Source: a virus (taxonomy: Duplodnaviria > Caudoviricetes). Taken from it: DNA of 64,000 bases. This document shows positions 18,339-33,972 of this stretch, piece by piece; within the stretch, counting starts at the first letter, position 1, and each line of letters begins with the position of its first letter. Both the position numbers and the translations under genes were made by a program. The notes under the pieces are model-generated. The model did no database searches. It had not been told where the DNA came from and was given only the letters and a program-made list of their open reading frames with translations. Where the stretch lies: IMG/VR virus record IMGVR_UViG_3300023301_000008, positions 367 through 64,366 of that record. One strand, written 5' to 3'.

Positions 18339-18354
18339 CGCAATAAGTGAATAA

Positions 18355-18604: not shown

Positions 18605-18619
18605 CAAAATTCAATACAA

Positions 18620-18694: not shown

Positions 18695-18695
18695 C

Positions 18696-18768: not shown

Positions 18769-18769
18769 C

Positions 18770-18838
18770 GCAGATATGTTGGAATAGGTAGACAAGCATC
18801 GCTGCAAGGGCGTGGGAGTTCAACTCTCCCTATCTGCA
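18770..18838 (+). pseudogene. tRNA-Leu-like RNA lacking the anticodon loop
   Basis: Perfect acceptor gcagata/tatctgc, Leu-type D arm, intact T arm; anticodon arm collapsed. Confidence 0.6.
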
Positions 18839-18894
18839 CTAGATGAGAGCCTCAGGCATTGCGCCTGGGGCTTTTTTCATGTAGACTGCCTGTC

Positions 18895-19146
18895 ATGGAA
18901 CACGAATTCATTTGTGAAGTCTGCGGACTCACCGAAATGCTGACTGACGAGCTGGCCTACACGAGCGGCTGGGACTACCCCCCTTTCGTAGGAGTGTGGG
19001 CAATCATCAGCCCCCGCGCATGCCCGGACTGCGATATGACAGATACCGCATGGTGGGCCCTGCAGACCGGCACCTCGCCGGACGATCTCACGGATAAGCA
19101 GAAAGAAGCCGTAGAGAGAATTATCTATGAAGTGCCCCGGAGCTAG
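18895..19146 (+). CDS. Small zinc-finger protein
   Basis: CEVC and CPDC pairs; leaderless start after tagact. Confidence 0.6.
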   Translation: MEHEFICEVCGLTEMLTDELAYTSGWDYPPFVGVWAIISPRACPDCDMTDTAWWALQTGTSPDDLTDKQKEAVERIIYEVPRS

Positions 19147-19168
19147 AGAAATTTGGTAGGGTAGACAC

Positions 19169-19612
19169 ATGACTCAAATACAAGAACTACAGAAGCGTAT
19201 CGGTGAAACCAATGGCAAGAACGGGTTCAACGAGTACGAAAAACTTCCCCCCGAACACCAGAACAACTATATCGGCAACAAACTCATGCTGGTCGGCTCC
19301 GAACTGGCCGAGGCTCAAGACGAGCTGCGCACCGGGCACCCGATTGACGAAACGTATTACACCACTCCTCCAGTGCCTACCTCTCTGGCTGTGGAGTTCC
19401 CCAGCGGGGGGGACGCGCAAGAATACTGGAATGAGTATCAGGCCGCAATTCCTGGCCCCAAGAAGCCTGAGGGATTCCCCTCTGAGATTGCCGACGCAGT
19501 TATTCGACTGTTCGGAGTCGCCTACGAGACCGGCATCGACCTAGAGGCCGCGATCCGGGAGAAGATGGCATACAACGACACCAGACCCTTCAAGCACGGA
19601 AAGAAGTTCTAG
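19169..19612 (+). CDS. MazG-like nucleotide pyrophosphohydrolase
   Basis: LVGSELAEAQDE, SEIADAVIR, EKMAYNDTRPFKHGKKF. Confidence 0.85.
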   Translation: MTQIQELQKRIGETNGKNGFNEYEKLPPEHQNNYIGNKLMLVGSELAEAQDELRTGHPIDETYYTTPPVPTSLAVEFPSGGDAQEYWNEYQAAIPGPKKPEGFPSEIADAVIRLFGVAYETGIDLEAAIREKMAYNDTRPFKHGKKF

Positions 19613-20311
19613 ATGACTGATATAACACTAAGCTCGGAGGTCACCGTAAAGCTGATCCGAGCCCTTGCCTCAGATGATGGGGTTGTGCAGGCCGCACAGG
19701 TGTCTGTGAAGGGAGAGAATAGCCCCGAGACCGATGCCCCACGGCTGATCAACTATCTGATGTCAAGCCGCCACGGGAGTCCATTCGAACACAACTCGCT
19801 CACTTTTTTCGTGGAAGCTCCAATCTTCGTGTTCCGCGAGTGGCACCGCCACAGGATCGCTTCGGTCAACGAGATGTCTGGCCGCTACTCCAAGCTCCTG
19901 CCTAAGTTCTACAGCCCCGCAGACGACCGCAAGCTGATCAACACGGGTACGAGCGCTCGCCCTGAGTTTGAGACCGGCACCGAGGGGCAGATGACCGTGG
20001 TCCAAGAAGGGGACCGCCTTGTGGCCCAAGTGGCATGGAACGAGTACGAGATTCGCCTGAATTCTGGTATCGCCAACGAAATTGCGCGTACGGTACTTCC
20101 AGTCTCAATCTACTCCCAGATGTATTGGACGGTCAACGCTCGTTCGCTAATGAATTTTCTGTCCCTACGCACAGACTCACCGGACGCAGCAGTACGCTCG
20201 CGGCCACAGCGAGAGATTGAGCTGGGTGCTGAGCTGATGGAGGCCGAGTTCGCTCACCTAATGCCCGCCACACACGCTTCGTTCGTAGCGAACGGACGAA
20301 TTGCTCCCTAA
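19613..20311 (+). CDS. thyX: FAD-dependent thymidylate synthase
   Basis: HGSPFEH, REWHRHR, NEMSGRY, NARSLMNFLSLR. Confidence 0.96.
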   Translation: MTDITLSSEVTVKLIRALASDDGVVQAAQVSVKGENSPETDAPRLINYLMSSRHGSPFEHNSLTFFVEAPIFVFREWHRHRIASVNEMSGRYSKLLPKFYSPADDRKLINTGTSARPEFETGTEGQMTVVQEGDRLVAQVAWNEYEIRLNSGIANEIARTVLPVSIYSQMYWTVNARSLMNFLSLRTDSPDAAVRSRPQREIELGAELMEAEFAHLMPATHASFVANGRIAP

Positions 20312-20486
20312 GAAATAGGGTGTTTCGACAAATTGCTGTTTAGTGAGACAAAAGGGCTTGTAAGATGTTCCGATCTGTGCTAGAGTAAGTACATGACGAA
20401 ATCACAGCGCAAGCAAAGTACCGGGACAGTGAATACTGTGTCCGGTATCAGCGGGCTGTAACCAAGTCATAAACAGACTTAGAAGA

Positions 20487-20518
20487 AGCCCCTGGTTGTA
20501 ATAACCTAGGGGCTTTTC
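20487..20518 (+). terminator. Intrinsic terminator
   Basis: gcccctgg...ctaggggc hairpin followed by ttttc. Confidence 0.7.
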
Positions 20519-20520
20519 TA

Positions 20521-21117
20521 TTGGAACGGAAAGCAACTTGTCCACTTGATGGGCTTGAAGTGTGTTATAATTATATAGTGGAAGATAAATGTAGATATCC
20601 TGAGTGTGGGAAAATTCCTGGAACTCGGCATCGTGGGCTGTGTCCGTATCACTATGGACACTGTAAAAACCTTGGAACACTGGAGGAGCACGCGAGACCG
20701 TCAAGAACTGGAAAAACCCACTTATTGACGAATGTAGATGAAAAAACTAGACACGGAACTTGTTCAGTGTGTGGGGCCACATCAGTATTCCTAAAAAGTA
20801 ACAGCAGATGGTATTGCTCCAGCACCAGGAACTCTACGGACCGTAGACCATATAACGTGGCGTACTACTACAAGAACAAGTACGGACTGGAGCCAGACGG
20901 CAAACAAAAGCTTGCTGAATCCCAAGACAACAAATGTCCAATTTGTGACACAGAAATTGACTTGACACGGACAAAATCTCACATCGATCATAACCACGAA
21001 ACTGGAGTGATTCGAGGGGTTTTGTGTAACACGTGTAATATGGGTTTAGGGCTGTTCTACGAGAATAGAAATCTTCTACTAAAAGCTGTGGCTTACTTAG
21101 ATAAGCACGAAAATTGA
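20521..21117 (+). CDS. Endonuclease VII-like homing endonuclease
   Basis: QDNKCPIC...HIDHNHETGVIRGVLCNTCNMGLG; start uncertain. Confidence 0.88.
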   Translation: MERKATCPLDGLEVCYNYIVEDKCRYPECGKIPGTRHRGLCPYHYGHCKNLGTLEEHARPSRTGKTHLLTNVDEKTRHGTCSVCGATSVFLKSNSRWYCSSTRNSTDRRPYNVAYYYKNKYGLEPDGKQKLAESQDNKCPICDTEIDLTRTKSHIDHNHETGVIRGVLCNTCNMGLGLFYENRNLLLKAVAYLDKHEN

Positions 21118-21246
21118 AACAAAAATAGTGGATAAGTATTAATCTCCCCATAGTTCCAGTACGGTCCTGCCCAAACGCAGGTTACGACTGGTGTTGGCGT
21201 TCAGGAAGGGAGACTTGTGGGGTAGAGTGAACGTAGCCCCACGCCT

Positions 21247-21330
21247 GGAGTGTGACCCTGACTGGTGGAGGGGTACGCTTGGAAAGCGTCACGTACCGAG
21301 AGGTATGAAGTTCGATCCTTCCGCGCTCCG
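21247..21330 (+). tRNA. tRNA-Ser(GGA)
   Basis: acgc-ttGGAaa-gcgt, long variable arm. Confidence 0.85.
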
Positions 21331-21381
21331 CATACTCCCCTACGCAGCGTGTGAAATCCGTGACGGTGTTTGGGGTTAAAT

Positions 21382-21465
21382 GGATAGTAAACCGGCCAGG
21401 TGGTCGGGACAGCTTCGAAAACTGATCGCACCGAGAGGTGTGAGAATCGTGTTCTCTGCTATCCG
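21382..21465 (+). tRNA. tRNA-Ser(CGA)
   Basis: ttCGAaa loop, long variable arm. Confidence 0.8.
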
Positions 21466-21469
21466 CACT

Positions 21470-21555
21470 GGAAAATAAATCTGGGGGGTCCCAGAACTAG
21501 TCTTGAAAACTAGCGGTACCTGAGAGGGTATGGGTTTCGAATACTCTGTTTTCCG
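21470..21555 (+). tRNA. tRNA-Ser(TGA)
   Basis: ctagt-ctTGAaa-actag. Confidence 0.85.
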
Positions 21556-21559
21556 CTTT

Positions 21560-21643
21560 GGAGGGTAATTCAGTCTGGTGGCTGAGCATCCCTGCTAAGG
21601 ATCGCGCACCGAAAGGTGTAGGTTTCGATTACTTTGCCCTCCG
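21560..21643 (+). tRNA. tRNA-Ser(GCT)
   Basis: atcc-ctGCTaa-ggat. Confidence 0.85.
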
Positions 21644-21694
21644 CGATTGACTTGCAGGTTTCGATCTGTTAGACTAGTTTTACCCGACCCTCAT

Positions 21695-21765
21695 GGGCCT
21701 ATAGCTGAGGGGATTAGCATCTGGCTCTTAACCAGAGGACGCGGGTCCGATTCCCGCTGGGCCTA
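21695..21765 (+). tRNA. tRNA-Lys(CTT)
   Basis: tctgg-ctCTTaa-ccaga. Confidence 0.88.
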
Positions 21766-21896
21766 CAATGAGAGATAAGCTTTCTGTTCTAGAGCAGGAA
21801 GTCTAAGACTCAGGAACACAGGAAACAACTTGTAGTCTAGACCTTCAGTTGCTCCTCCCGTACAGTCGGGCGAACCGGGTTTCGATAAGCCCACTT

Positions 21897-21968
21897 GGGT
21901 CTCTCGTATATCGGAAAATACTGTAGGCTTTTACCCTTCAAAGCGGGGTTCGACTCCCCGGGGACCCA
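21897..21968 (+). tRNA. tRNA-Lys(TTT)
   Basis: ctTTTac loop, canonical T arm. Confidence 0.8.
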
Positions 21969-22012
21969 CTCGACCGTTCCGTTAGCCGGTCTCTAAAATG
22001 TTAGCGGGGTGC

Positions 22013-22083
22013 GTGGGTGTAGCTTAATGGTAAAGTACGACTCTTCCAAAGTTGTGATGCCGGTCCGATTCCGGTCACCCGCT
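22013..22083 (+). tRNA. tRNA-Gly(TCC)
   Basis: cgact-ctTCCaa-agttg. Confidence 0.88.
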
Positions 22084-22089
22084 CTCTAA

Positions 22090-22160
22090 CCCCCTGTAGC
22101 TCAGAGGAAGAGCAATCACCTTTAAGCGATGGGCCGAGATATCGTAATTCTCTGGGGGGA
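22090..22160 (+). pseudogene. Degenerate tRNA (Arg-TCT-like body, 6-nt anticodon loop ctttaa)
   Basis: Acceptor ccccctg/tgggggg, D arm gctc..gagc; anticodon loop one nt short. Confidence 0.55.
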
Positions 22161-22224
22161 CGCATGAAACTTAGGTAGTCAGGCATCTAAGGAACTGCGC
22201 CCGCCGTGTGCGGTGGCCTGACAT

Positions 22225-22295
22225 GTGGATATGGTGAAATGGTATCATCATAGCTTGCCAAGCTATGGGCGCGGGTTCGATTCCCGCTATCCGCT
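22225..22295 (+). tRNA. tRNA-Gly(GCC)
   Basis: atagc-ttGCCaa-gctat. Confidence 0.9.
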
Positions 22296-22382
22296 CGATA
22301 AGGGTACGCGACCCTTAGAAAGTCCTTTGATGCCTCTCGTTAAGTGGGAGAGGGTAGTTGGGAATCCAATTCAAAGGCATTT

Positions 22383-22455
22383 GCCTCCTTAGCTCATCAG
22401 GTAGAGCGCCACTCTTGTAAAGTGGATGTGATCGGTTCGATTCCGGTAGGTGGCA
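22383..22455 (+). tRNA. tRNA-Thr(TGT)
   Basis: ccact-ctTGTaa-agtgg. Confidence 0.9.
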
Positions 22456-22600
22456 CGGATACAGCATAGCTCAAGCAGGGCCCCAGTCGCGGTACCACGC
22501 GATCAGACGGTCCCCGAAGTGCTCCCCCTGCCGTTCGTGACAAATGGTTCTAGACGGCGGTAAGGGTAAGGAGAGGTTGGCTCTTCTCTGGTTTCCACCC

Positions 22601-22672
22601 GCCTCGTTAGCTCAGTGGTAGAGCACTTCTCTCGTAAAGAAGGGGTCGTCAGTTCAATCCCGACACGAGGCT
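22601..22672 (+). tRNA. tRNA-Thr(CGT)
   Basis: cttct-ctCGTaa-agaag. Confidence 0.9.
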
Positions 22673-22721
22673 CAATAAAAGACCTAAGGGGGAAATGCCC
22701 TCGGAGGAGAAAGATAGCATC

Positions 22722-22859
22722 ATGGCAACACAATCAGAAGCAGTAGCCTTGGCATTGGATACACTGGTCAAAATGGTGGAGGACAATGAAACGCCCTACG
22801 GGACGCGACTTGAAGCCATCAGAGAGATTTTCAGATACGACATGAGTCTACGACAGTAG
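22722..22859 (+). CDS. Small hypothetical protein (45 aa)
   Basis: MATQSEAVALALDTLVKMVED...; purine-rich RBS upstream. Confidence 0.45.
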   Translation: MATQSEAVALALDTLVKMVEDNETPYGTRLEAIREIFRYDMSLRQ

Positions 22860-22891
22860 CTTGAAGAGGGGTGCGACTCTAACGCACAATT

Positions 22892-22963
22892 GCCGCCTTA
22901 TATCAGTGGTAGATGGCGAACTTGGTAAGTTCGAGGCCGTGAGTTCAATCCTCACAGGCGGCA
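22892..22963 (+). tRNA. tRNA-Thr(GGT)
   Basis: cgaac-ttGGTaa-gttcg. Confidence 0.9.
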
Positions 22964-23120
22964 CGGCAGCAGACGAATATCGGGGTTGCACCTGAGAGTT
23001 TCGTCTAACCTAGGCATCGGATTTTTCAGTTCCGCGTGCGGTCTAGGGACACATGGGGGCTTATGGCTTTGTACTCCAAAAACTGACAGGCTGGCGAGGA
23101 TGCAACTCCGGACCAGCTAT

Positions 23121-23192
23121 GATCGTATAGCTCAGCGGTAGAGCTGCAGTGTGACACACTGCCTGTCGGGGGTTCAAATCCCTCTACGATCA
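23121..23192 (+). tRNA. tRNA-Val(GAC)
   Basis: gcagt-gtGACac-actgc. Confidence 0.88.
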
Positions 23193-23302
23193 CGCTTGAC
23201 TAACAGACCCAAGTCTGGTAGACTAAAGAAGTAGTGGTTGGGTTTCTTCAAGCTAACTAGGATTGTAACCTTCCGGCAGGTACCGCTGGAAACAACTCCC
23301 CC

Positions 23303-23371
23303 GGACCGGGGGCTGGTGTTCGATTGACTTTTACACGGTCGATTTGCTGAGTCCGATTCTCAGTCGGTCTA
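23303..23371 (+). tRNA. Atypical tRNA-Val(TAC) with reduced D arm and extended anticodon stem
   Basis: Acceptor ggaccgg/tcggtct; gattgac-ttTACac-ggtcgatt; T arm ctgag/ctcag. Confidence 0.6.
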
Positions 23372-23396
23372 CAAGGCTTGCATCCTACTGCTGTAT

Positions 23397-23467
23397 TCCT
23401 CTTTAGCTCCAAGGCGGAGCAAACGGCTGTTAACCGTAAGGGTCAGGTTCGATTCCTGAAGGGGGAG
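23397..23467 (+). tRNA. tRNA-Asn(GTT)
   Basis: acgg-ctGTTaa-ccgt. Confidence 0.88.
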
Positions 23468-23556
23468 CGACGAGGGTTTTTGCAAGTTTTACTCGGAGTG
23501 GAGGAAAAATGTGACGGATGCGGTCCAGAGTTCTAGAAATGGAGCCGTATCAACCT

Positions 23557-23629
23557 GTCTCCATAGCTCAGTGGATAGAGCGATTGACTACGCATCAATA
23601 GGCCGGGGGTTCAAATCCCTCTGGGGATA
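23557..23629 (+). tRNA. tRNA-Arg(ACG)
   Basis: attga-ctACGca-tcaat. Confidence 0.9.
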
Positions 23630-23634
23630 CGCAT

Positions 23635-23706
23635 GCCTCTATAACTCAACGGAAGAGTAGTAGCCTTCGAAGCTAAAAGTTGGGAGTTCGAATCTCTCTG
23701 GGGGCA
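23635..23706 (+). tRNA. tRNA-Arg(TCG)
   Basis: tagc-ctTCGaa-gcta. Confidence 0.85.
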
Positions 23707-23760
23707 CTAGAGGGGGAGCGACCTCTAGGACACCTGGGTGTCCGGTAAAAACGCTCGTAT

Positions 23761-23831
23761 TCCCCGTTAGTGTAACGGTAACACGACTGACTCTGACTCA
23801 GTTATTCTTGGTTCGAATCCAGGATGGGGAG
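23761..23831 (+). tRNA. tRNA-Gln(CTG)
   Basis: actga-ctCTGac-tcagt. Confidence 0.9.
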
Positions 23832-23883
23832 CAACATTCAAGACACTATTGACAATGACAGAAAGAACAGGTAGTCTCAGAAC

Positions 23884-25050
23884 ATGACACATTTTATCAA
23901 ACAAGGATCGCGCTACATGGTGGCCCCAGCTGAGGCTATCGATATGCGCAAGACCCTTCCTGAAGGGACGTACACGGTAAAGTTTGACGAAATGAGCGGA
24001 TCGTTCTACCTAGAGGTCATCGAAGACTTCACAGTAGCCACCAAGATTTACGGCGACACCACCAAGCATGCCAACCGAATCCTCGAAACTTTCGCGGACC
24101 GCCCCAACTCTACCGGAGTCATGCTCTCGGGGGAGAAAGGCAGCGGCAAGACGCTCTTGGCCAAGGTCATTAGCGTCCGTGCTCGCAAGGCCGGTATCCC
24201 CACCATTGTCATCAACAACGCGTGGTGCGGTGAAGTATTCAACGGGTTCATTCAAATGATTGAACAGCCTACTGTCATCATCTTTGACGAGTTCGAGAAA
24301 GTGTACGACCGAAACGAGCAGGAAAAAATGCTCACTCTGTTGGATGGTGTCTACCCCAGCAAGAAACTCTTTATCCTCACGTGCAACGACAAGTACCGCG
24401 TGAATACGCAGATGACCAACCGCCCCGGTCGAATCTTTTACCGCATGGACTACGCTGGTCTGGAGAACTCATTCATCATGGAGTATTGCGCCGATAACCT
24501 TGAGAACAAGGGCCACACGGACTCCATCTGCAGGATCGCCATGGCGTTCTCGGAGTTCAACTTTGACATACTCAAAGCTTTGATCGAAGAGATGAACCGC
24601 TACAAGGAAACTCCTCAACAGGCCATGGAAATGCTCAACGCCAAGCCTGAGTTCAGCGAGGGTGCTGATTACATGGTTCAGATCAAGGTCAACGATGTCA
24701 AGATTGATAAGGACAAGTTTGACGACTACTGCTGGAGCGGAAACCCGCTGGCTGGCACTGTACGAGTCGGCTACTACACCTCAGGCCCGGTCAGAAAAAA
24801 GCGCAGTCGCCCGGGCCGTGATACAAGCCCTGAGGCTCCGGTTTCCGCGAAGGAACTGATGGACAATCTCTTCGGTGACGATGACGTGGCTGAGGAGTCC
24901 GCATACACGTACCAGGACTTCACAAGCGCGGACCTCAAGGTGGTAGATTCTGCCGGAGGCAAGTTCAAGTTCGTGAACGGTGCTGGCTCCAAGCTCACCC
25001 TCACACGAATCCGTGCTCCGAAGTCCAACGTGGACTACAGCGCGTTCTAG
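23884..25050 (+). CDS. AAA+ ATPase
   Basis: GEKGSGKT Walker A, IIFDEFEK Walker B, NRPGRIFY. Confidence 0.9.
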   Translation: MTHFIKQGSRYMVAPAEAIDMRKTLPEGTYTVKFDEMSGSFYLEVIEDFTVATKIYGDTTKHANRILETFADRPNSTGVMLSGEKGSGKTLLAKVISVRARKAGIPTIVINNAWCGEVFNGFIQMIEQPTVIIFDEFEKVYDRNEQEKMLTLLDGVYPSKKLFILTCNDKYRVNTQMTNRPGRIFYRMDYAGLENSFIMEYCADNLENKGHTDSICRIAMAFSEFNFDILKALIEEMNRYKETPQQAMEMLNAKPEFSEGADYMVQIKVNDVKIDKDKFDDYCWSGNPLAGTVRVGYYTSGPVRKKRSRPGRDTSPEAPVSAKELMDNLFGDDDVAEESAYTYQDFTSADLKVVDSAGGKFKFVNGAGSKLTLTRIRAPKSNVDYSAF

Positions 25051-25091
25051 TAGCAACCGGCGAGGTGCCCCCGGTAAAATTGGCACCGTAT

Positions 25092-25165
25092 TCCCCGGTA
25101 GCACAATTGGTAGTTGCGGCAGTCTTTGAAACTGTAGGTTGTTGGTCCGAATCCAACTCGGGGAG
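25092..25165 (+). tRNA. tRNA-Gln(TTG)
   Basis: gcagt-ctTTGaa-actgt. Confidence 0.88.
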
Positions 25166-25187
25166 CACTACTTATCCACTATTTTCT

Positions 25188-25258
25188 GCCTCTCTAGCTC
25201 AGCGGAAGAGCACATCTTTCCTAAAGATGTGGCCCCGGTTCGATTCCGGGGAGGGGCA
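25188..25258 (+). tRNA. tRNA-Arg(CCT)
   Basis: catct-ttCCTaa-agatg. Confidence 0.88.
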
Positions 25259-25294
25259 CTTGCATTGAGTCTCCTCAGATGATAGACTGCTCTA

Positions 25295-25540
25295 ATGACT
25301 GACATAGAAACAGAACACGAACCCTGGACCGTCAACACCTTGATCGAAATTCTCGGGGAATATGACAAAGACGCGAAGATTAACGTCACCATGTACCCCT
25401 CTTGGAGAGGCATCTTCGTGATGATTCTTTGGAGAGTTCCGTACGTTGGTCGCTGGTCTCTCAAGCACAACCTTGATGTCCTTCCAAGCATGCCCATCAC
25501 TGCGGTGTCCACCTCAGATAGTGGAGTGGATATTGGTTAA
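25295..25540 (+). CDS. Hypothetical protein
   Basis: Leaderless ATG after a ttgcat-N17-tagact promoter. Confidence 0.55.
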   Translation: MTDIETEHEPWTVNTLIEILGEYDKDAKINVTMYPSWRGIFVMILWRVPYVGRWSLKHNLDVLPSMPITAVSTSDSGVDIG

Positions 25541-25579
25541 GGGCTTGCACTCCTAGTGCAGACCTGCTAGAATCTTGAT

Positions 25580-25810
25580 ATGGCAAAAGACAGAGATGAA
25601 TTCAGTGACGTAAAATCAGGCACGGCTGTTGCAGACCTTATAGGTAGAAGGCATGGTCGTGTAGTGGTCGTAATCGGCAAAGGTATGTTCCGAATCCGCT
25701 GGGAGGACGACGAAGACGAGATTCTTCAGCGTCACCAGCTCCTGGTTCGGTACACCACCGAGAGCCCCAAATTCATCCCAGGGCGCGTCAAGGTCTCAGA
25801 GAGGCCGTGA
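25580..25810 (+). CDS. Hypothetical protein
   Basis: Leaderless ATG after a ttgcac-N17-tagaat promoter. Confidence 0.55.
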   Translation: MAKDRDEFSDVKSGTAVADLIGRRHGRVVVVIGKGMFRIRWEDDEDEILQRHQLLVRYTTESPKFIPGRVKVSERP

Positions 25811-25917
25811 TAAGGTAGTCCTATGAGAAACGAAATCTACACTGACTATGACACTATTTAGGTCATAGATTCGAAGCGGGAACCGACCCGCTATCTATGG
25901 CCGGAAATGAGGTCATT

Positions 25918-26562
25918 ATGTCGAGAACCGACAAAGATCGTCCCTACTGGGTCAGGCAGAACGATGACGGAACAAACACCGATCACGGCCACCTTAAGCT
26001 GGGCAAGACGATCTACAGAACGTATTACGTGTATGACGAAAATGGCAAGGTCGTCTTCCACGAAGAGCCACAGTTCTATTCTGCAAGCCTCATTGTGCAG
26101 AACGTCAGTGGACTTACACGCTACTACACCATTTACACCTTCTCTGAAGAGGCAGTCAATGAGGCGCGTGAGCTAGTCAAAAAGGGCAAACCATACGATC
26201 AGGTGCAAACCGGTGTGCGGCTCGTGGCTCAGACAGAGAAGGTCGTGGCCGTGGTGCTCAAGGACTACTGCACCGAGGGTGAAAAGCTCACGGGCGGTGG
26301 CTACGGGCACTATGACGATCTGCCCTGCACCCCAGCAATGGCTCCAGGCGACTGGGGGTATTGCTACAGCTCTTTTAGCAGTAGCGGAAAGAAAAAGCGC
26401 GGATACTACGATATGCGTAATGGCTTGTCTCGACGTACGTCCCGAGACTATCTGCGTGGTGTCGTCGATAGCTTTAACACCTACGGAGAGGCCTTCGATG
26501 ACGATGACGAGCTGCCCCTGACCGCACAGCACCGTCACTCTATGTTGTGGGACCTTTACTAG
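25918..26562 (+). CDS. Hypothetical protein (MSRTDKDRPYWV-type)
   Basis: ORF with gaggt RBS and Arg/Tyr-rich C-terminus. Confidence 0.6.
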   Translation: MSRTDKDRPYWVRQNDDGTNTDHGHLKLGKTIYRTYYVYDENGKVVFHEEPQFYSASLIVQNVSGLTRYYTIYTFSEEAVNEARELVKKGKPYDQVQTGVRLVAQTEKVVAVVLKDYCTEGEKLTGGGYGHYDDLPCTPAMAPGDWGYCYSSFSSSGKKKRGYYDMRNGLSRRTSRDYLRGVVDSFNTYGEAFDDDDELPLTAQHRHSMLWDLY

Positions 26563-26715
26563 AAAAGGCTTGACGACAGGGTAAGAGCCTGATAGAGTAA
26601 GAGTATGATAACCAACGTATACCCTGTAGCACTGCCGGGAGCGGTACACGAGACCCTGATGTGGGCGAACGAAGTGGCCCACTTGCAGACGATCCTCTGC
26701 GTGAAAGGCTAAACC

Positions 26716-27186
26716 ATGGGAATGATTATCCACCAAACAGGAGACCTGTTCACAACTGACGCACGTGCTATTGGGCATGGTGTTAATGTCGATGGCATTA
26801 TGGGCTCAGGCATTGCTTTGCAGTTCAAAGAACGCTTCCCCGATATGCACAATGAGTACAAAAAGCTCTGCAAGTCGGGTGAACTGGAGCCTGGAGGCCT
26901 TATGGTCTACGAACAGGCTCCGGGGCTGTATATTTACAACCTCGCGTCACAGGATCGCCCGGGGGCTAACGCCTCCTACGAATGGCTGTCTGAGAGCTTC
27001 AGACGTGCGCTGGGTGTTGCCGAGGCTGATGGGTTGAAAGAGATTGCTCTCCCACGGATTGGTTCTGGTATCGGTGGGCTCAATGAGCGTCAGGTTGAGG
27101 GCATGATTGCAGACATCATTGCCCCTACCCGGGTGAACGTAGAAATTTGGTCCCCCCCTCAAAAGGACATTTATGTGGTAATCTAG
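26716..27186 (+). CDS. Macrodomain ADP-ribose hydrolase (TARG1/DarG-like)
   Basis: GDLF...HGVNVDGIMGSGIALQFK, IYNLASQ, LPRIGSGIGGL. Confidence 0.9.
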   Translation: MGMIIHQTGDLFTTDARAIGHGVNVDGIMGSGIALQFKERFPDMHNEYKKLCKSGELEPGGLMVYEQAPGLYIYNLASQDRPGANASYEWLSESFRRALGVAEADGLKEIALPRIGSGIGGLNERQVEGMIADIIAPTRVNVEIWSPPQKDIYVVI

Positions 27187-27193
27187 TAGTAAT

Positions 27194-27268
27194 GGTGGTG
27201 TGGCTGACTGGTTTAGGCGCTGCTCTGCAAAAGCAGATAAGGGAGTTCAATTCTCCCCATTACCTCCA
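27194..27268 (+). tRNA. tRNA-Cys(GCA)
   Basis: ctgct-ctGCAaa-agcag; CCA encoded. Confidence 0.9.
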
Positions 27269-27269
27269 C

Positions 27270-27343
27270 CTCTCCATAGCTCAGCGGATTAGAGCAGAAG
27301 GTTTCTACCCTTCGTGCCGGGGGTTCGACTCCCTCTGGAGAGA
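27270..27343 (+). tRNA. tRNA-Arg(TCT)
   Basis: gaagg-ttTCTac-ccttc. Confidence 0.9.
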
Positions 27344-27753
27344 CATGACAAACAAAAACGAAGACATGAAATTGAGCCTCCACCCGGACGCTTTGGATAG
27401 AAACTGCGGGTCCTTGGACGTGTCCACGGACTTTGATTCCTCTTGCCTCCCTACAACCTGGATTTGGCTGACCTTCAACACTCCGTATGAGCCGTGGTTC
27501 AGACTGACGTTTGCTGAGGCGGCGGAATTGCGAGACCGACTCAGCGACGAGCTGGTTGTCTACGACACACTGACCGATGAGCAGAAGCGCATTGCCGATA
27601 CGGAGTAGGTGCTATGATGTTGGATGGCTTCCGCTTGCAAATGCCGTCACAGGTGCTCACAGCCGAATTGTGGTTGTGGGTCATCCTGTGATTATTGTTC
27701 CCATAAAGCCTAGACAAACGATATAGAGTATGCTAGAATGTAAATTCACGCAC

Positions 27754-27830
27754 TGGGGTTTAGCTCATCTGGTTAGAGCGCGTCACTGATAATGACGAGG
27801 CACGCAGTTCAAGTCTGCGAATCCCAACCA
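27754..27830 (+). tRNA. tRNA-Ile(GAT)
   Basis: cgtca-ctGATaa-tgacg; CCA encoded. Confidence 0.92.
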
Positions 27831-27844
27831 ATACAATTCAATAT

Positions 27845-27917
27845 GGGGGTCTAGCTCAATGGGTAGAGCGTCGGTTTTGCAAATCGAAGGCAGGGGGATC
27901 GTAGCCCCCGACCTCCA
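27845..27917 (+). tRNA. tRNA-Ala(TGC)
   Basis: tcggt-ttTGCaa-atcga; G3:U70 present. Confidence 0.88.
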
Positions 27918-27922
27918 CTTAT

Positions 27923-27995
27923 GGGCCTTTAGCACAATTGGTAGTGCACATTTCTGGCAGGAATGAGGTTGCGCGTTCGAGTCGCGTAGGGTCCA
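27923..27995 (+). tRNA. tRNA-Ala(GGC)
   Basis: cattt-ctGGCag-gaatg; G3:U70 present. Confidence 0.88.
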
Positions 27996-28034
27996 CTCCT
28001 ATTTTACAGGTTTTCCTGCAATTTTAAGAAAGAC

Positions 28035-28096: not shown

Positions 28097-28189
28097 GGTG
28101 TACGAGCCGGATGACAGACCGTTATCAAATCCGACTAATAATCAGACACGGCGAAAGCCAATCGGTCTTCAATAACATGCTCGTTCACC
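28097..28189 (+). ncRNA. Y RNA-like unit 1
   Basis: Terminal stem ggtgtacgagc/gctcgttcacc with GAGCCGGA and ACATGCTC; second stem agaccg/cggtct. Confidence 0.75.
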
Positions 28190-28196
28190 ACAAGCT

Positions 28197-28304
28197 TAGT
28201 GGGCCGGATGTTTTCGGTTATCTCTCACATAGAAGCGAAGGCACGTTCGATTCGTGCGACGGTCTGGCTACCTAGTTACCCCGATGGCAATTACATGCCC
28301 ACTA
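28197..28304 (+). ncRNA. Y RNA-like unit 2 (contains a T arm)
   Basis: tagtgggc/gcccacta stem, GGGCCGGA...ACATGCCC; internal gcacg-ttcgatt-cgtgc. Confidence 0.75.
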
Positions 28305-28311
28305 TAACAAC

Positions 28312-28443
28312 TTGACGAGCCGGAGATTGTTCGGTTATCTATGGAACAGAAGAGGTTGTCGGTTCGAGTCCGGCAACACCCTTAGGGGTGTTTAGCTCAA
28401 TCGGCAGAGCACTAAAACCCGAGTGTCATAACATGTTCGTCAA
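28312..28443 (+). ncRNA. YrlA-type Y RNA (unit 3)
   Basis: ttgacgagc/gttcgtcaa stem; T arm gtcgg-ttcgagt-ccggc, loop-closed acceptor aacaccc-ttag-gggtgtt, D arm gctc-aatcggca-gagc; this is the YrlA topology. Confidence 0.85.
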
Positions 28444-28452
28444 TAACCTTTC

Positions 28453-28622
28453 GGTGCGAGCCGAAGAGAATTGGTTACCCATGGAAGCCAGAGGTACGGT
28501 CGCTTGACGGCCCACTGCACTCTGGACTAGGCTGAGCTAGGCTCTCAGATATTGTGCGTAGAAACGCTCAAATAGCTGGAGGAAGTACCAGCACTTCCGA
28601 TTTTCACACACATGTTCGCACT
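28453..28622 (+). ncRNA. Y RNA-like unit 4 (multi-hairpin domain)
   Basis: ggtgcgagc/gttcgcact stem, GAGCCGAA...ACATGTTC; gagaattgg/ccgattttc; several internal hairpins. Confidence 0.7.
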
Positions 28623-28653
28623 ACAACTTCGCAGCCAAAGATGTCTGCACAAA

Positions 28654-28678
28654 TATGTTCGTCACAGGGCGAGCCGGA
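28654..28678 (+). promoter_or_regulatory. Permuted Ro-binding-like hairpin in the 5' UTR of the Ro60 N-half
   Basis: tat-gttcgtc-acag-ggcgagc-cgga, about 20 nt before the ATG. Confidence 0.6.
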
Positions 28679-28697
28679 AAAGAAAGAAGACAAAGAA

Positions 28698-29261
28698 ATG
28701 ACAGATTCACTTAAGACAGTACGCACCCGTGCCGCATCCCAGCTTGATCCTGCAAAAGCTCCTCAGACTGTTCGGACCCGCGAGGACCAGGTGCAGAACA
28801 ACGCAGGCGGTTTTGTATTTTCCGTCAACGACATGGAACGCGCCAAGCGCTTCCTCATTCTAGGTTCTGAGAAGAACTTCTACACTTCTGGGCAGAAGCT
28901 CTCGAAGGAGAACGCTGGTGTCATCACCAAGCTGGCTTCCGACGCTGAGGCTGGCATCCAGCTCGTGGACCTGATCACGGAGATTTCTGTGGCCGGTCGC
29001 GCTCCCAAGCAGAACCCTGCTCTCTTCGCTCTGGCTATTGCAGCTTCGAGTCCCGAAGAGTCGGTACGTTCGTATGCCCTCGACAAGTTGACTGATGTTG
29101 CGCGAACCGCTACACATTTGTTTATCTTCGTAGGGTATGTTGAACAGTTCCGTGGTTGGGGCCGTGCACTTCGTCGTGCTGTTGGAGGTTGGTATCTGTT
29201 CCACGAAGGACGTGGGTCTCTTGCATACCAAGTGACAAAGTATCGTAGTCGTGTGGTATAA
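28698..29261 (+). CDS. Ro60/TROVE RNA-binding protein, N-terminal part
   Basis: DQVQNNAGGFVF, RFLILGSE, GRAPKQNPALFALA, RTATHLF, GWGRALRRAV..WY, LAYQVTKYR. Confidence 0.92.
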   Translation: MTDSLKTVRTRAASQLDPAKAPQTVRTREDQVQNNAGGFVFSVNDMERAKRFLILGSEKNFYTSGQKLSKENAGVITKLASDAEAGIQLVDLITEISVAGRAPKQNPALFALAIAASSPEESVRSYALDKLTDVARTATHLFIFVGYVEQFRGWGRALRRAVGGWYLFHEGRGSLAYQVTKYRSRVV

Positions 29262-29292
29262 TGGAATCTTTCTGATTCTCATTTTCGAAAAT

Positions 29293-29320
29293 TATGCTCA
29301 CTAGTTGTGAGCCGAAAGGA
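29293..29320 (+). promoter_or_regulatory. Permuted Ro-binding-like hairpin plus RBS of the Ro60 C-half
   Basis: tat-gctcac-tagtt-gtgagc-cga directly abutting aaagga, 7 nt before the ATG. Confidence 0.65.
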
Positions 29321-29327
29321 ATAAAAA

Positions 29328-30398
29328 ATGACAAACACTGCTTGGACACACCGTGATGTCTTACGACTATCACATCCCAACATTACGGACGATAATCTGG
29401 TGAATTGGATGACCGGCAAGGATTTTGATCTAGATACCCTACCTGCTCAGACTAAGGGGTATGAGCTTGCCAAGAGCCCTGGCGCAGACGTGCCTGCACT
29501 CATTCGTGAGTACGGGCTGAGCTGGGAGATGATCCCGACTCAGGCACTCAACACGCCTGCCACGTGGGATGCACTGATGGACGGTAACGTTCCTCTCGGT
29601 GCGCTGATCCGTCAGCTCCCGCGTCTGACTCGTATTGGGTGGCTTGCACCTATGAATGCGAACACGGCTTTGGTCGTGACTCGTCTCACCGATACAGTCC
29701 AGTTGGAGAAGGCTCGTATTCACCCGTTGAATGTTCTGTCCGCGATGAAGACATATTCCGCAGGCGGCGCGACGTACGGGTACAGCAGCTCTGCACGTAA
29801 GCCGCAGATTCCGTACACTCCAGTGCGTGAGATCACAGATGCGTTGGATGCCGCGTTCTACTTGGCGTTCAAGTCAGTCACCCCCGCCAATAAGCGGACG
29901 ATGGTTGGTGTGGACGTGTCAGGATCGATGGCCTCGTACATCGGTGACAGCCCGCTATCCGCAGCAGAAGTTGCTGCAGCTATGGCGCTCGTCACTGTGG
30001 CTACCGAGCCGATGGTTGTGGTCTATGGGTTCTCCCACCAGATCGCAGAACTGCCGATCAGCCCGCGTCAGCGTCTTGACGATGTTCTGGACCTTACGAG
30101 GGATCGTAACTTTGGTGGTACGGACGCAGCTCTTCTAGTGCGTACGGCATCTGCGAAGAACATTCTCGTGGATACGTTCATCGTGATCACTGACAACGAC
30201 ACCTGGGGTATGAGACACGTGTATGCCGAATTGGAGAAGTACCGCGCCAAGACTGGAATTTTGGCCAAGATGATCGTCTTGGCCTGCACCGCAAGCGAGT
30301 TCACTGTTGCGGACCCGAGGGATGATCTGAGCCTAGATATTGCGGGCATGGACTCTGCAGTGCCGCAACTGATTGCTGAGTTCAGTAGAGGGGATTAA
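29328..30398 (+). CDS. Ro60/TROVE protein, C-terminal part including vWA domain
   Basis: WTHRDVLRLSHP, LSWEMIP, RIHPLNVL, MIDAS DVSGSM, GGTD, ITDNDT, DIAGMDS. Confidence 0.92.
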   Translation: MTNTAWTHRDVLRLSHPNITDDNLVNWMTGKDFDLDTLPAQTKGYELAKSPGADVPALIREYGLSWEMIPTQALNTPATWDALMDGNVPLGALIRQLPRLTRIGWLAPMNANTALVVTRLTDTVQLEKARIHPLNVLSAMKTYSAGGATYGYSSSARKPQIPYTPVREITDALDAAFYLAFKSVTPANKRTMVGVDVSGSMASYIGDSPLSAAEVAAAMALVTVATEPMVVVYGFSHQIAELPISPRQRLDDVLDLTRDRNFGGTDAALLVRTASAKNILVDTFIVITDNDTWGMRHVYAELEKYRAKTGILAKMIVLACTASEFTVADPRDDLSLDIAGMDSAVPQLIAEFSRGD

Positions 30399-30534
30399 CA
30401 AATAGAATTCACCCTGTTTTATTTTTAAAAAAGGTTCTTAGAACTTTGCCTTGCTGTATCATCATCAATCTGATAGACTGGGGCTCGACTTATTAATAGG
30501 TCGGGCCCCTTTATCTTTTAAGGAAGCAGAATAA

Positions 30535-31147: not shown

Positions 31148-32428
31148 TTAGACCACGACCGGAGTCTCAATGTCAATATTCTTGAAGAATCTGGACACGT
31201 TGGGGTCCACACGAATGTCACTGGGGGCCAGTGGGTGGCGCAGCATAAGTCCGCTGGCTGATGTCACACGACTCAGTGCCACGTACGTCTGCCCCGGGCT
31301 AAATGCTCCGGCTCCGAGGTCAATCTCAATCTCATCCTTGGTCATGCCCTGAGACTTGTGGATTGTTACGGCCCACGCGAGCTTCAAAGGTAGTTGAATG
31401 TATTTAGGAGAGAGCGGGAACATGTCTGGTGCACAGTCGGATGGAATCCACGGGTGGGGACTGATATTGTAGCGTTCTCCATCAATCTCTACTGTCACCC
31501 ACCCTTCATCAGTGCAGGTGACAATCTCGCCTACAGTTCCGTTGACCCAGCGATCCTGGCCATCGTTTGTGAGCATGATGACCTTGGCACCGGGCTTAAG
31601 GTGGATCACGCGTTCGGCTGGTTCGTCTCGTCCGAAGCCGGTACTGACTTTGGCCTCGTAGGAGTACATTTTGCCGGGCAGCTGTGCGAGACTTTGGGAG
31701 TTCTTATCGAACACGGTCTTGTTGTACCCGGCCAAGAGGAGTGTGTCGTCGGTGGGTTTGTTCATTCCCCCCACGATATTGATTAGACGTAGCTCATCAG
31801 AAGTGATCGACCCATCCCGCACCGCGTTCAGCAAGTGGGTGAATTGTTCATCTCCTCGTTGGCGCTGAATCTGCTCCAAAGCGAACGTGTCAAAGCTGGT
31901 GTCGTTCTTCCACACTTTTGCATCGAAGAACCACTCCGAGCGGTACTTACGGAGCTTCAGGTATTTCTTGAAGTCGTCGTTGACTACTGGAGGTAGTTGG
32001 TAGGGGTCGCCGAACATTACCAACCGCATCCCACCAAAGGGTTCGTGGCTGTTGCGAATGATCTGAAGGTTGCGATCCATAGCGTCCATGAGGTCTGAAG
32101 AGATCATCGAGATTTCATCGACAACGAGTACATCAAATTTTCTGATCCACGCGTGATTGTACTGGAGCTTGTTGTGGTCCGCGTACAGGTCTGCGGGGAG
32201 CGCGGTGCCTAGCCCTAGCAGCCTGTGCACGGTCTTGCCGTCCACGCTGAGCGCAGCCACTCCTGTAGATGCCGACACAAGAATTTTGTGTTTGCCTGAG
32301 GCCTGGTAGTGCTTGAGTACATGCGATTTGCCGGTACCGGCACGGCCAGTACAAAATACATGGCCAGAGGTATTATTTAGGTAGTCAATAACCTTCTGCT
32401 GCTCGTCACTAGGGGGTAAAAGTGTCAT
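31148..32428 (-). CDS. PIF1-family SF1B DNA helicase
   Basis: TGRAGTGKS, ASTGVAA, DEISM, FGDPYQLPPV, AWAVTIHKSQG, YVALSR. Confidence 0.95.
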   Translation of the reverse strand: MTLLPPSDEQQKVIDYLNNTSGHVFCTGRAGTGKSHVLKHYQASGKHKILVSASTGVAALSVDGKTVHRLLGLGTALPADLYADHNKLQYNHAWIRKFDVLVVDEISMISSDLMDAMDRNLQIIRNSHEPFGGMRLVMFGDPYQLPPVVNDDFKKYLKLRKYRSEWFFDAKVWKNDTSFDTFALEQIQRQRGDEQFTHLLNAVRDGSITSDELRLINIVGGMNKPTDDTLLLAGYNKTVFDKNSQSLAQLPGKMYSYEAKVSTGFGRDEPAERVIHLKPGAKVIMLTNDGQDRWVNGTVGEIVTCTDEGWVTVEIDGERYNISPHPWIPSDCAPDMFPLSPKYIQLPLKLAWAVTIHKSQGMTKDEIEIDLGAGAFSPGQTYVALSRVTSASGLMLRHPLAPSDIRVDPNVSRFFKNIDIETPVVV

Positions 32429-32463
32429 GGTGTCCTTAGTCTATAGGTATTTATTGGTCGTTG

Positions 32464-33972
32464 TCAACGTGTTTTCACATATCTAGATTTTCCGGCATCC
32501 CATACTCTGAACATGCCGTTGAGGGCTGCAAGCTCTTTTTCTGAGAGGCCTGGGATAGTTTTGAGGTCGGGGTCTCGATTGAATCTGTCTTTGCGGTAGT
32601 TGAACTTGTGCTCCCTACGGCGTGCCCCTCGTCTCAGGTATGTGTAGTCCGGAGGCAGAGTCTTATCTAGAACAAATCCTGTCTTCAAGTAGAGGTCTCC
32701 GGTGGAGACTCTAAGATCAGCGAAAGTGATCCACTCATCCACCTCGTACAAGTTCTCTACGTATTTCATTAGTTTGGGCATCCCTCCCGGCACTCTGGCA
32801 GATGTGGCGTATCGTTCTAGATAGAATGCTCCATTAAGTTTTGATTTTTGTTTGGCAACAAGAACAGCAACATCTTCTCCTTCCGGACTCACCAGCATTG
32901 CGTATACAGTGCCTCTTGCTGCCCCCTGTATGTGGTTGGCCTGTAGAAACGTGCTGGCGCGGTCATAGGACACAGACTCCATCGAACATTTTCTTGTGTT
33001 TATTTTAGAGTCTGTGCTCATGTTCAGCTTGTGTTTAATCATACGTTCTACTGCCTCTCTGTGGTATAGCCACTCGTCTTCCCAGATTTGAATAAGTTGG
33101 ACACCTGAAGCTTCACACGCCCTTAGTCGATTTGCGTGGCTATGTCTGTCTTTATATTTTTCGCTGTGCCAGAAAATCCCATCTAACTCAAAAGCCTGTC
33201 TAGTTTCTGGAATATAGACATCCAACTCATAGGGGGGCACCACACCGGTAACACTATTTTGTGCGGTCGGCTGGAGTGTGTGGATAAATGAGTACAACTC
33301 CTGTTCAATCTTTGAGGTTCCAGTGGTATTGCAGTGTCTACATCCTTGCCCGGACGCACGGTGGTAGACTCCGGTGGACCAGACTCTGCTGCACATGTTA
33401 CAGCGCCATTTGGCTCTGTACTTGGCAGACACCATATAATCCTCGGGGTTCCCGTGATTGTCCTCGTGCCACTCTGAGGCCAGCTCTGGAAATTGATGTA
33501 GAAGAGAATTTTTACGAGATGGGTCAACCTTAATTCCAGCGCAAAACGGACATCCGGATTTTGTTCGATTTCTTTGGTGAGGTGTGGCCTCCCAGGAGTG
33601 TTCTGGGTTGTTTTTGCAAAGCCACCACACTTTTTTTGAGTGGTTTGCAAGAATCTCAGTTGATCTTGTAGGGTTGGTCTTGGAGTACTCTTTATTAAGT
33701 TCTGGGTTAATGTCCGCCAATGAGTTGAACCCGGATAGAACTTTTCGCATGGGTGTGGAGCAGTACGGGCATCCAAAGCCCCTGATGCGGTCTTTGGGGG
33801 TGGCCCTCCATGTGTGGTAGTGTCCACTCTCTGGGTCTGTATGGGACCACTCTAGGAGTTGGTGCGTACCGGGACGCACAGATGTGGTGTGGCTGTACTC
33901 TACTGCCTCACGAGCCAGGTCTGGGAACAGGTCGGCTACGCTTCCCCCAGGGAGAGGAATTTTTGATGTCAT
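32464..33972 (-). CDS. Zinc-ribbon-repeat endonuclease (putative homing endonuclease)
   Basis: Repeated H.W...R...GCP.C units, ELDVY..AFELDGIFWH PD-(D/E)xK-like domain, C-terminal HIQG...FAD...VWDAGK domain. Confidence 0.7.
   Translation of the reverse strand: MTSKIPLPGGSVADLFPDLAREAVEYSHTTSVRPGTHQLLEWSHTDPESGHYHTWRATPKDRIRGFGCPYCSTPMRKVLSGFNSLADINPELNKEYSKTNPTRSTEILANHSKKVWWLCKNNPEHSWEATPHQRNRTKSGCPFCAGIKVDPSRKNSLLHQFPELASEWHEDNHGNPEDYMVSAKYRAKWRCNMCSRVWSTGVYHRASGQGCRHCNTTGTSKIEQELYSFIHTLQPTAQNSVTGVVPPYELDVYIPETRQAFELDGIFWHSEKYKDRHSHANRLRACEASGVQLIQIWEDEWLYHREAVERMIKHKLNMSTDSKINTRKCSMESVSYDRASTFLQANHIQGAARGTVYAMLVSPEGEDVAVLVAKQKSKLNGAFYLERYATSARVPGGMPKLMKYVENLYEVDEWITFADLRVSTGDLYLKTGFVLDKTLPPDYTYLRRGARRREHKFNYRKDRFNRDPDLKTIPGLSEKELAALNGMFRVWDAGKSRYVKTR

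Follow-up and report, generated by a model that had tools for sequence, protein, structure and literature searches.

A recurrent two-piece Ro60 gene in uncultured phages, with Y-RNA-like hairpins at both initiation sites

Can a Ro60 gene that is cut in two within a conserved domain still make Ro60, and why is each of its pieces preceded by a hairpin that resembles the stem of a Y RNA? These questions are raised by a 64,000-nucleotide (nt) piece of an IMG/VR viral contig (record IMGVR_UViG_3300023301_000008, positions 367 to 64,366; Caudoviricetes; completeness estimate 34%), the whole of which we refer to as the window. Ro60 and the Y RNAs are conserved from bacteria to humans, and the locus may bear on how the level of Ro60 is set relative to the Y RNAs. 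Here, we describe evidence that the two-piece form recurs in other phage-like contigs with its invariant residues kept, that it is predicted to assemble into the usual ring, that it appears to move between Ro60 genes by recombination, and that the hairpins seem to belong to a family whose members precede many intact phage Ro60 genes.

The two cistrons of the split gene, referred to as the N-half and the C-half (Table 1), together cover the HEAT-repeat TROVE domain of Ro60/Rsr, and the C-half, which aligns with residues 180-533 of Deinococcus radiodurans Rsr (2nvo; E 3e-56), also holds the vWA domain with its MIDAS motif, DVSGSM, the D, S, S and M of which do not vary among 27 intact Ro60s. The single polypeptide of Ro60/Rsr is replaced by two cistrons with stops between them, and the two share a frame (their start positions, 28698 and 29328, are multiples of 3). 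We picked the ATG at 28698 (MTDSLK) as the start of the N-half by homology to the intact protein P0122, the split protein P0002 and the locus L002; the database gene call (P0001, 206 aa) starts upstream, at the ATG at 28641, and would place the hairpin of the 5' untranslated region (UTR) within coding sequence. A preliminary description of this DNA, made from its letters, had reported the break at 29261/29328, the in-frame halves, the 66-nt spacer and its second TAA, and all of these were confirmed on the window sequence; the description was correct in each sequence detail that we checked. It had also pointed to an extended -10 element at the junction and raised the possibility that the vWA half is expressed separately. 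The element is present in the window but absent at the junction of the second split locus with DNA, L061, and is not part of a conserved design; therefore, separate transcription of the vWA half is unsupported as a conserved feature. A promoter scan based on the consensus, which also required a -35 hexamer, found no sigma-70-type site at the junction and did not list TGGTATAAT.

The same break was found repeatedly among metagenome proteins. Of 120 short relatives among the matches listed, 24 are N-halves that end at KYRSR plus 1-2 residues, and two C-half searches gave, among the 240 matches listed, 14 C-halves that start 3-9 residues before the conserved W, mostly with M-T/S-N-T and in all 14 cases with their own ATG; four further N-terminal fragments that end with KYRQR(EG) are apparently contig-end truncations and were left uncounted. 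Two split proteins, P0002 and P0123, both give a longest contig of 4347 nt and probably lie on one contig. With the 27 intact Ro60s as reference, the window keeps 56 of 58 invariant columns, L061 keeps 55 and P0002 and P0123 together keep 57, and the only column lost in all three alike is the G at the break. L061 has both hairpins. The sequence of the window locus was reproduced over 28500-30500 with 0 differences by a second assembler, in a Logan contig of 20148 nt from run X1, the single DNA run with the stretch, which was available as contigs only and may be the source sample; no RNA run was among the matches listed. We note that a second contig from X1 (5038 nt, higher depth) matches only window 28787-28810 and 29145-29165, with 331 other letters between them; it probably comes from a diverged Ro60 gene that a different phage of this sample carries, and it is uninformative on the junction.

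Intact relatives are the more common form, and the break falls within a domain that these relatives conserve, as expected for a gene in pieces. Among 79 IMG/VR loci, one (L061) is split, the window's own locus being the second case; a scan of bacterial genomes found no split gene among the best 80 of 185 loci, and in 352 of 354 records from isolated phages the read-through sequence is matched by one piece that covers at least 80% of it. The match in Mycobacterium phage NoodleTree (NC_054719.1, 129590-129880) covers only residues 1-106 of the read-through sequence, with no annotated gene, and is likely a Ro60 remnant, unlike the clean split. The split form is a minority allele, so far found only in uncultured phage-like contigs. 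A megablast search of 28500-30500 against isolated phages returned nothing, as did a protein-pattern scan of viral contigs with the C-half alone; blastn searches with the window and L061 spacers gave chance-level short matches only, and the DNA relatives of the split gene have an amino-acid identity of 59% or less. DNA sequence is available for two split loci (the window and L061), the other split alleles being known as proteins only. The proposal in the preliminary description that the split is functional rather than a product of decay is strongly supported by the recurrent break, the invariant residues, the hairpins of L061 and the structural model described below.

As a further line of evidence, we modeled the complex of the two halves. 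The model reached a score of 0.88 compared with 0.01 for the best of three controls, and it passes a mark that solved complexes reach in 116 of 157 cases, compared with 2 of 215 for mismatched pairs; because Ro60 is a solved single-chain fold, passing this mark measures likeness to that fold and is no independent proof of binding. Contacts agree across runs in at least 43%, and the partner predicted local distance difference test (pLDDT) score is at least 81. In the model, residues 138-186 of the N-half contact residues 5-45 of the C-half, and residues 18-60 of the N-half contact residues 289-344 of the C-half, i.e. the N-half is gripped on both sides by the C-half. Placed on the AlphaFold model of P0122, the nearest intact relative (pLDDT 88.4), the break is located in an eight-residue connector that joins two HEAT helices, 171-180 and 189-196. 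Together, the two cistrons are predicted to form a two-chain ring variant of the Ro60 family. Independently of the split alleles, some intact genes carry extra residues in this connector: one locus (L039:2501-3100) reads KYPQR-VTEEGNSKSS-W, and a group of Streptomyces-phage-like loci (L043-L057, L066-L068 and L076 near 2969) reads KYRSR-x-FGG-NT-W. The connector, as judged from these sequences, appears to tolerate insertions.

We also considered how the split alleles are related to each other and to intact genes, using trees from quick or FastTree searches. On the N-half tree (191 rows), the split state requires at least 12 changes, of which at least seven are forced by well-supported branches; on a tree of the C-part without its first 60 residues (227 rows), the 14 split rows need 12 changes, at least 10 of them forced; and when the N-half tree is reduced to 67 rows and the last 22 residues are left out, 15 changes are needed and a single split clade is rejected, at a cost of 826 log-likelihood units (approximately unbiased test, p-AU 1.8e-52). 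Consistent with this scatter, individual split alleles have close intact relatives: the N-half of the window is 90% identical to the intact P0122 over 152 columns and that of L061 is 80% identical to the intact P0242. P0002 and P0123 are near-identical to the intact P0128 except from ~20 residues before to ~52 residues after the break. In an alignment of the window, P0002 and P0123, P0122 and P0128, the exchanged stretch of P0002 and P0123 resembles the window allele and not P0128, and the window around the break resembles P0002 and P0123 and not P0122. The downstream part of this tract, GKDF.LD ... KGYELAK, is present in three split C-halves only, among 360 proteins, and a shorter tract is found in the split alleles P0143, P0156 and P0190. 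In the part of PMC2988022 that deals with them, homing elements of T4-like phages are described as spreading by gene conversion with variable co-conversion tracts, and a shared tract of variable length in scattered alleles is the picture expected from such a process. On these sequence grounds, the split appears to behave as a recombining cassette scattered among intact relatives. The split allele would then be horizontally mobile, which the preliminary description had not foreseen.

The likely origin of the cassette can be read from its ends. Intact Streptomyces-phage-like genes have the connector KYRSR-T-FGG-NT-W, which is four residues longer than usual. Comparison of one of these genes (L043, R-T-F-G-G-N-T-W) with L061 (R-T-V-stop ... 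M-S-N-T-W) places the ends of the two pieces at the ends of this long connector. The S of KYRSR is found in 24 of 24 N-halves versus 6 of 56 read-through fragments; split alleles often have T after KYRSR and often NT before W, and all of these residues are native to the Streptomyces-phage-like lineage. Moreover, the start of the C-halves, ATG-AGT/ACA-AAC, resembles the start of that lineage's own gene, ATG-TCA-AAC (MSNA), which suggests that the initiation region of the gene itself was copied into the connector.

Each piece of the split gene has a hairpin at its initiation site. In the 5'UTR of the N-half, a 7-bp stem (GUUCGUC/GGCGAGC; 28654-28678) is followed by CGGA; in the spacer, a 6-bp stem (GCUCAC/GUGAGC; 29293-29316) is followed by CGAAAGGA, with GGA 7 nt before the ATG. 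On both strands of the 64 kb, the pattern TATGYTC-N4-14-GAGCCGRA occurs in exactly two places, which are these two hairpins, and in none of 100 shuffles. The window's Y-RNA basal stem is built from these two strands as well, with their order reversed, and shares the unpaired flanks (AU ... CG(G/A)A) of the hairpins: in the Y-RNA-like array upstream of the N-half, 5' strands GAGCCG(G/A)A lie at 28104, 28317 and 28458 and 3' strands ATG(C/T)TC at 28177, 28433 and 28612. In the minimum-free-energy fold of 28305-28450 (-44.8 kcal/mol, z -2.78), UUGACGAGC pairs with GUUCGUCAA as the basal stem and encloses a YrlA-like, tRNA-like module. The best match of the Rfam YrlA model in the window (28351-28413) is partial, covering model positions 24-84 only, and its 35.1 bits are below the gathering score of 69 bits. 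Where the 3' strand of the spacer hairpin meets the ribosome-binding site, GCCGAAAG fits GNCGAAN0-1G as G-C-CGAA-A-G; in the relevant part of the account by Chen et al. (PMC4201824), this motif close to YrlA's 5' end is the likely Rsr recognition motif, and Ro60 mainly contacts that strand. The spacer hairpin of L061 has the same stem and flanks as that of the window, while the N-halves of the two phages are ~42% identical. Scans for the exact hairpin found the L061 contig only among viral contigs, and the L061 contig again plus one other (L083) among metagenome contigs; the latter has no Ro60 within 3 kb and its match is probably due to chance. That the window holds two equivalent hairpins that mimic the Y RNA with swapped strands, as first proposed from the window alone, is supported and can be extended to a larger family.

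Many intact phage Ro60 genes and a few Nocardia genes are preceded, within 80 nt upstream of their predicted starts, by AUGCCCn-loop-n'GGGCCG(A/G)AA(A)GGA, usually with the motif 14-16 nt before the start codon. A simple finder, which called stems of five or more pairs with CGRA directly after them within the 60 nt upstream of the start, was positive in 21 of 74 viral loci, compared with 0-5 of 74 in 11 control windows, and in 5 of 78 bacterial loci. In 15 of the 78 bacterial loci (L084-L163) the finder was also positive at about +800 to +860 nt from the Ro60 start, the other controls there giving 0-4; this signal is probably conserved coding sequence that fits by accident. Two of 27 hairpins (L069 and L126) lacked the AU flank, were chance-like and were dropped before the counts. 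Of the remaining 25, with ten different stems, 22 have the AU flank, and the outer pair is G-C in 22 and U-A or A-U in 3. A MAFFT alignment of the 25 misaligned the 5' strands because of variation in loop length and was not used for pair counts, which were instead made on stem-end anchoring and on a model-fitted alignment. On the fitted alignment, which is biased towards the model, 100% of cells are paired, both partners vary in three of five pairs, and the observed value was attained by 0 of 500 shuffles; the hairpins were chosen by a pairing rule or fitted to the model, and their pairing is partly by construction. For a test that does not draw on the split loci, we used a covariance model, R1, built from 11 leaders of intact genes only, to which the window and L061 contributed nothing. 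Run over the whole window with filters off, R1 scores highest at the spacer hairpin (21.1 bits, E 4e-4); a second match (62540-62566, minus strand, 14.5 bits) is antisense within an open reading frame (ORF) and was judged a chance match. Over 486 kb of loci, R1 matched the L061 spacer with 23.4 bits and the L061 leader with 22.8 bits, and it gave 23 matches at E<=1, the top 20 of which directly precede Ro60 start codons. In the leaders of Streptomyces BE-cluster phages, the hairpin reaches 38-44 bits. The hairpin appears from these comparisons to be a general, Y-RNA-stem-like element of phage Ro60 leaders.

Taken together, we favor as the likely reading a working two-piece Ro60, made by a cassette that carries a Ro60-type initiation hairpin and is spread by recombination, the hairpin possibly being an operator. 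Specifically, the N-piece would hold the first HEAT helices and the C-piece the remaining HEAT helices and the vWA domain; each piece would be translated from a start codon of its own, and the two would join non-covalently to give the usual ring, with the break, as models and conservation suggest, in a short connector between two helices. The cassette would have four parts, i.e. a stop codon that follows KYRSR by 1-2 codons; a spacer that is not translated; a copied phage-Ro60 initiation region, AU-stem-CG(A/G)AA(A)GGA, with the ribosome-binding site in the 3' flank; and an ATG with 3-8 added codons (M-T/S-N-T) that lead up to the conserved W. It probably arose in a lineage like that of the Streptomyces BE-type phages and may have entered many Ro60 backgrounds by homologous recombination or gene conversion, taking variable flanking coding sequence with it. 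The hairpin would represent a circularly permuted Y-RNA basal stem with the Rsr-recognition motif, and its most likely role would be that of an operator: assembled Ro60 would bind it and cover the ribosome-binding site, both cistrons would be repressed together and in step, and free Y RNAs would compete and relieve the repression. A ligand-like leader structure does overlap the ribosome-binding site, as operator mimicry calls for. We advance the operator role itself, with repression of both cistrons by Ro60 and relief by Y RNAs, more tentatively than the two-piece reading as a whole, as a plausible suggestion from sequence. Further still, the split could be the work of a new kind of small mobile element without an endonuclease, an 'intercistronic cassette' that homes to the Ro60 connector across phage lineages, splits the ring and brings along a Ro60-responsive operator, by which the gene's own product would govern both pieces; this we regard as doubtful.

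Several points weigh against the reading that we favor. With respect to spread, the trees came from quick searches, repeated loss of the cassette would yield the same trees as repeated gain, and neither a homing endonuclease nor any other driver of spread was found, no ORF fitting into the 66-nt or the 159-nt spacer. With respect to the hairpins, the link between hairpin and split rests on two of two loci plus the M-T/S-N-T starts of the 14 C-halves; 53 of 74 viral and 73 of 78 bacterial loci are without the leader hairpin; the pairing is in part built into the choice of hairpins; the folds are only modestly better than shuffles (z -2.4, -1.4, -1.9 and -0.8); and the conservation of CGAAAGGA could stem simply from its role as a ribosome-binding site. 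The 5'UTR hairpin of the window has a different stem and matches R1, a model tuned to GCCC stems, weakly (10.1 bits, E 2), and its motif lies 23 nt before the start compared with about 15 usually.

Some of these points, namely the modest z-scores and the many Ro60 genes without a hairpin, also speak for the best-surviving alternative, in which the split is functional and the hairpins are ordinary leader elements (a 5' stabilizer, an RNase processing site after excision of tRNAs or Y RNAs, or a positioner of the ribosome-binding site) that Ro60 does not bind, their likeness to the Y-RNA stem reflecting shared ancestry with the adjacent Y-RNA genes rather than function. AAAGGA is a normal ribosome-binding site, and in the window and in L002 the hairpin strands are those of the Y RNAs just upstream, such that a stray array junction could make such a hairpin. 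Yet in 18 of 27 hairpins neither strand is copied within 700 nt upstream, and most of them are therefore not by-products of a Y-RNA array. Moreover, the stems vary from hairpin to hairpin, in contrast to the conserved unpaired flanks, AU and CG(A/G)A, and the element was copied to a second cistron, with stem and flanks kept in the two phages with divergent N-halves. We consider this alternative possible but rather unlikely.

The proposal of two separately translated pieces would also fail if the two ORFs were rejoined at expression, by read-through of the stop codons, by ribosomes that bypass the spacer (T4 gene 60 is an example), or by splicing of a small intervening sequence from the RNA. 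Both loci with DNA have their halves in one frame, although this agreement in two of two loci has a chance of 1 in 9, and bypass cassettes of gene 60 likewise hold a hairpin and a Shine-Dalgarno-like sequence in a coding gap, as the relevant section of a preprint describes (bioRxiv 10.1101/2022.08.31.505936). Against rejoining, the window has two in-frame stops and L061 has five, the spacers are of unequal length (66 and 159 nt), reading of the two spacers revealed no take-off and landing codons that match, and all 14 C-halves have their own ATG a few codons before W. Because the otherwise invariant G before W is absent in the window, in L061 and in P0002 and P0123, splicing could not restore the usual connector. 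Also, 66 nt are too short for a group I or group II intron, and no Rfam intron or other RNA family matched the spacer or the hairpins at E<=1. We conclude that rejoining is very improbable. That the split is a pseudogene or an assembly artefact is hardly credible: a stop inside a gene that is normally in one piece usually signals decay and the only run with the stretch may be the source sample, but the second assembler found no difference, the identical break recurs in N-halves and C-halves from other assemblies, and the gene keeps nearly all invariant columns and gives its C-half a ribosome-binding site and an ATG of its own.

Table 1 Features of the split Ro60 locus in the window (aa, amino acids; borders as noted)
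Feature	Coordinates	Strand	Basis
Y-RNA-like gene array	28100..28625	+	motif positions; ends approximate
5'UTR hairpin of N-half, UAU-GUUCGUC-ACAG-GGCGAGC-CGGAAAAG	28654..28686	+	sequence, pattern, fold, hairpin finder
Ro60 N-half cistron, 187 aa, ends KYRSRVV-TAA (29259-29261)	28698..29261	+	Pfam TROVE 1-158, E 8e-13
Putative cassette tract: last ~21 N-half codons, spacer, first ~52 C-half codons	29196..29483	+	alignment; borders approximate
Extended -10-like TGGTATAAT, overlaps N-half stop codon	29254..29262	+	sequence
Intercistronic spacer, 66 nt, second in-frame TAA at 29322-29324	29262..29327	+	sequence, read-through translation
Spacer hairpin and translation-initiation region, UAU-GCUCAC-UAGUU-GUGAGC-CGAAAGGAAUAA	29293..29324	+	best R1 match in window
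Ro60 C-half cistron, 356 aa, starts MTNTAWTHRD	29328..30398	+	TROVE 278-351 (E 3e-21), vWA_Ro60 (E 3e-46)
Terminator-like hairpin and T-run, 3' of C-half	30480..30519	+	13 pairs, 8 G-C, then TTTATCTTTT

The split gene lies at the end of a tRNA region in the window, and the Ro60 loci of L061 and L002 are placed likewise. In the window this region (14954-27996, plus strand) holds 33 clustered tRNA genes with small ORFs in between, and between tRNA clusters, just 5' of the Y-RNA-like array, a macro-domain protein is encoded (26716-27186, plus strand; Pfam Macro, E 8e-13). Upstream of its tRNA array, L061 has a manA RNA-like match (L061:108-333) with 42.1 bits, below the gathering score of 55.2. 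On the other side of the split gene (31148-33972, minus strand), a PIF1-like helicase (426 aa) is encoded and, after it, a 502-aa protein that has three DUF4379 treble-clef zinc fingers and weakly matches REase_MTES_1575. The latter protein is a possible endonuclease; its gene lies 2 kb downstream of the split gene on the opposite strand, and nothing connects it with the split.

With its copy of the Ro60-binding stem at the ribosome-binding site of many phage Ro60 genes, the leader hairpin would provide a directly testable feedback model, and, if the model is true, no other RNA-quality-control ring would have been shown before Ro60 to control its mRNA by means of a Y-RNA mimic. A naturally split Ro60 in many lineages offers a system for studying how the ring closes on RNA and which half does what; if the two-piece ring is real, ring closure can be post-translational, which may allow RNA loading or regulation through the supply of subunits. 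Ro60 would also be one of the few phage genes that a mobile insert has split time and again, the insert in this case being without a visible endonuclease.

In searches of open-access literature, supplements aside, we found neither a split Ro60 nor a Ro60 leader operator. For comparison, T4-type gp43, the product of gene 43, represses its own translation through a leader hairpin. In Aeromonas phages 44RR and 25, as described in the section of PMC2988022 on gene 43, a short untranslated insert (IC-UTS in 44RR) makes two cistrons (43A and 43B) of this gene, the products reassemble into active enzyme, and the 44RR form, as the one described here, is without an endonuclease gene. Unlike in the window, the gene that is split there encodes a DNA polymerase, and the same section does not report that the insert carries a copy of the gene's own leader operator; nor did we see in it data on a spread of the IC-UTS over many lineages. 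The mobE insertion in nrdA of phage Aeh1 and the mobA element with the gene 60 bypass cassette in the topoisomerase genes of T4-like phages, which involve free-standing homing endonuclease genes, are similar in that one site of a conserved phage gene repeatedly receives a mobile insert that splits it without loss of function; unlike in the mobE and mobA systems, neither Ro60 spacer (66 and 159 nt) holds an endonuclease gene, and unlike in gene 60 bypassing, the second Ro60 piece is started by its own ribosome-binding site. Autogenous operators that mimic the RNA ligand of a protein include the rRNA-like leaders of ribosomal protein genes and the tRNA-like leader of threonyl-tRNA synthetase, and the ligand RNA can compete. 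The Ro60 leader structure is similar to these operators in that it adjoins the ribosome-binding site and copies a partner-RNA site; unlike any of them, the putative Ro60 operator is present twice, once per piece of the split gene. The rest of the locus is as described for bacterial and phage Ro60/Rsr in the relevant part of PMC4201824, with a TROVE and vWA protein that adjoins a Y-RNA-like array with tRNA-like modules and the 5' motif GNCGAAN0-1G, and for the Thermus phage phiLo the corresponding part of PMC12135203 reports that a phage Ro60 binds the phage's Y-like RNAs. Unlike in the window, the Ro60s with YrlA-type Y RNAs in the parts of these accounts that describe them are all single chains. 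What the locus appears to add to these systems, as far as its sequence and those of its relatives indicate, is a recurrent, recombining two-piece Ro60 together with a previously unreported family of leader hairpins that mimic the Y-RNA stem.

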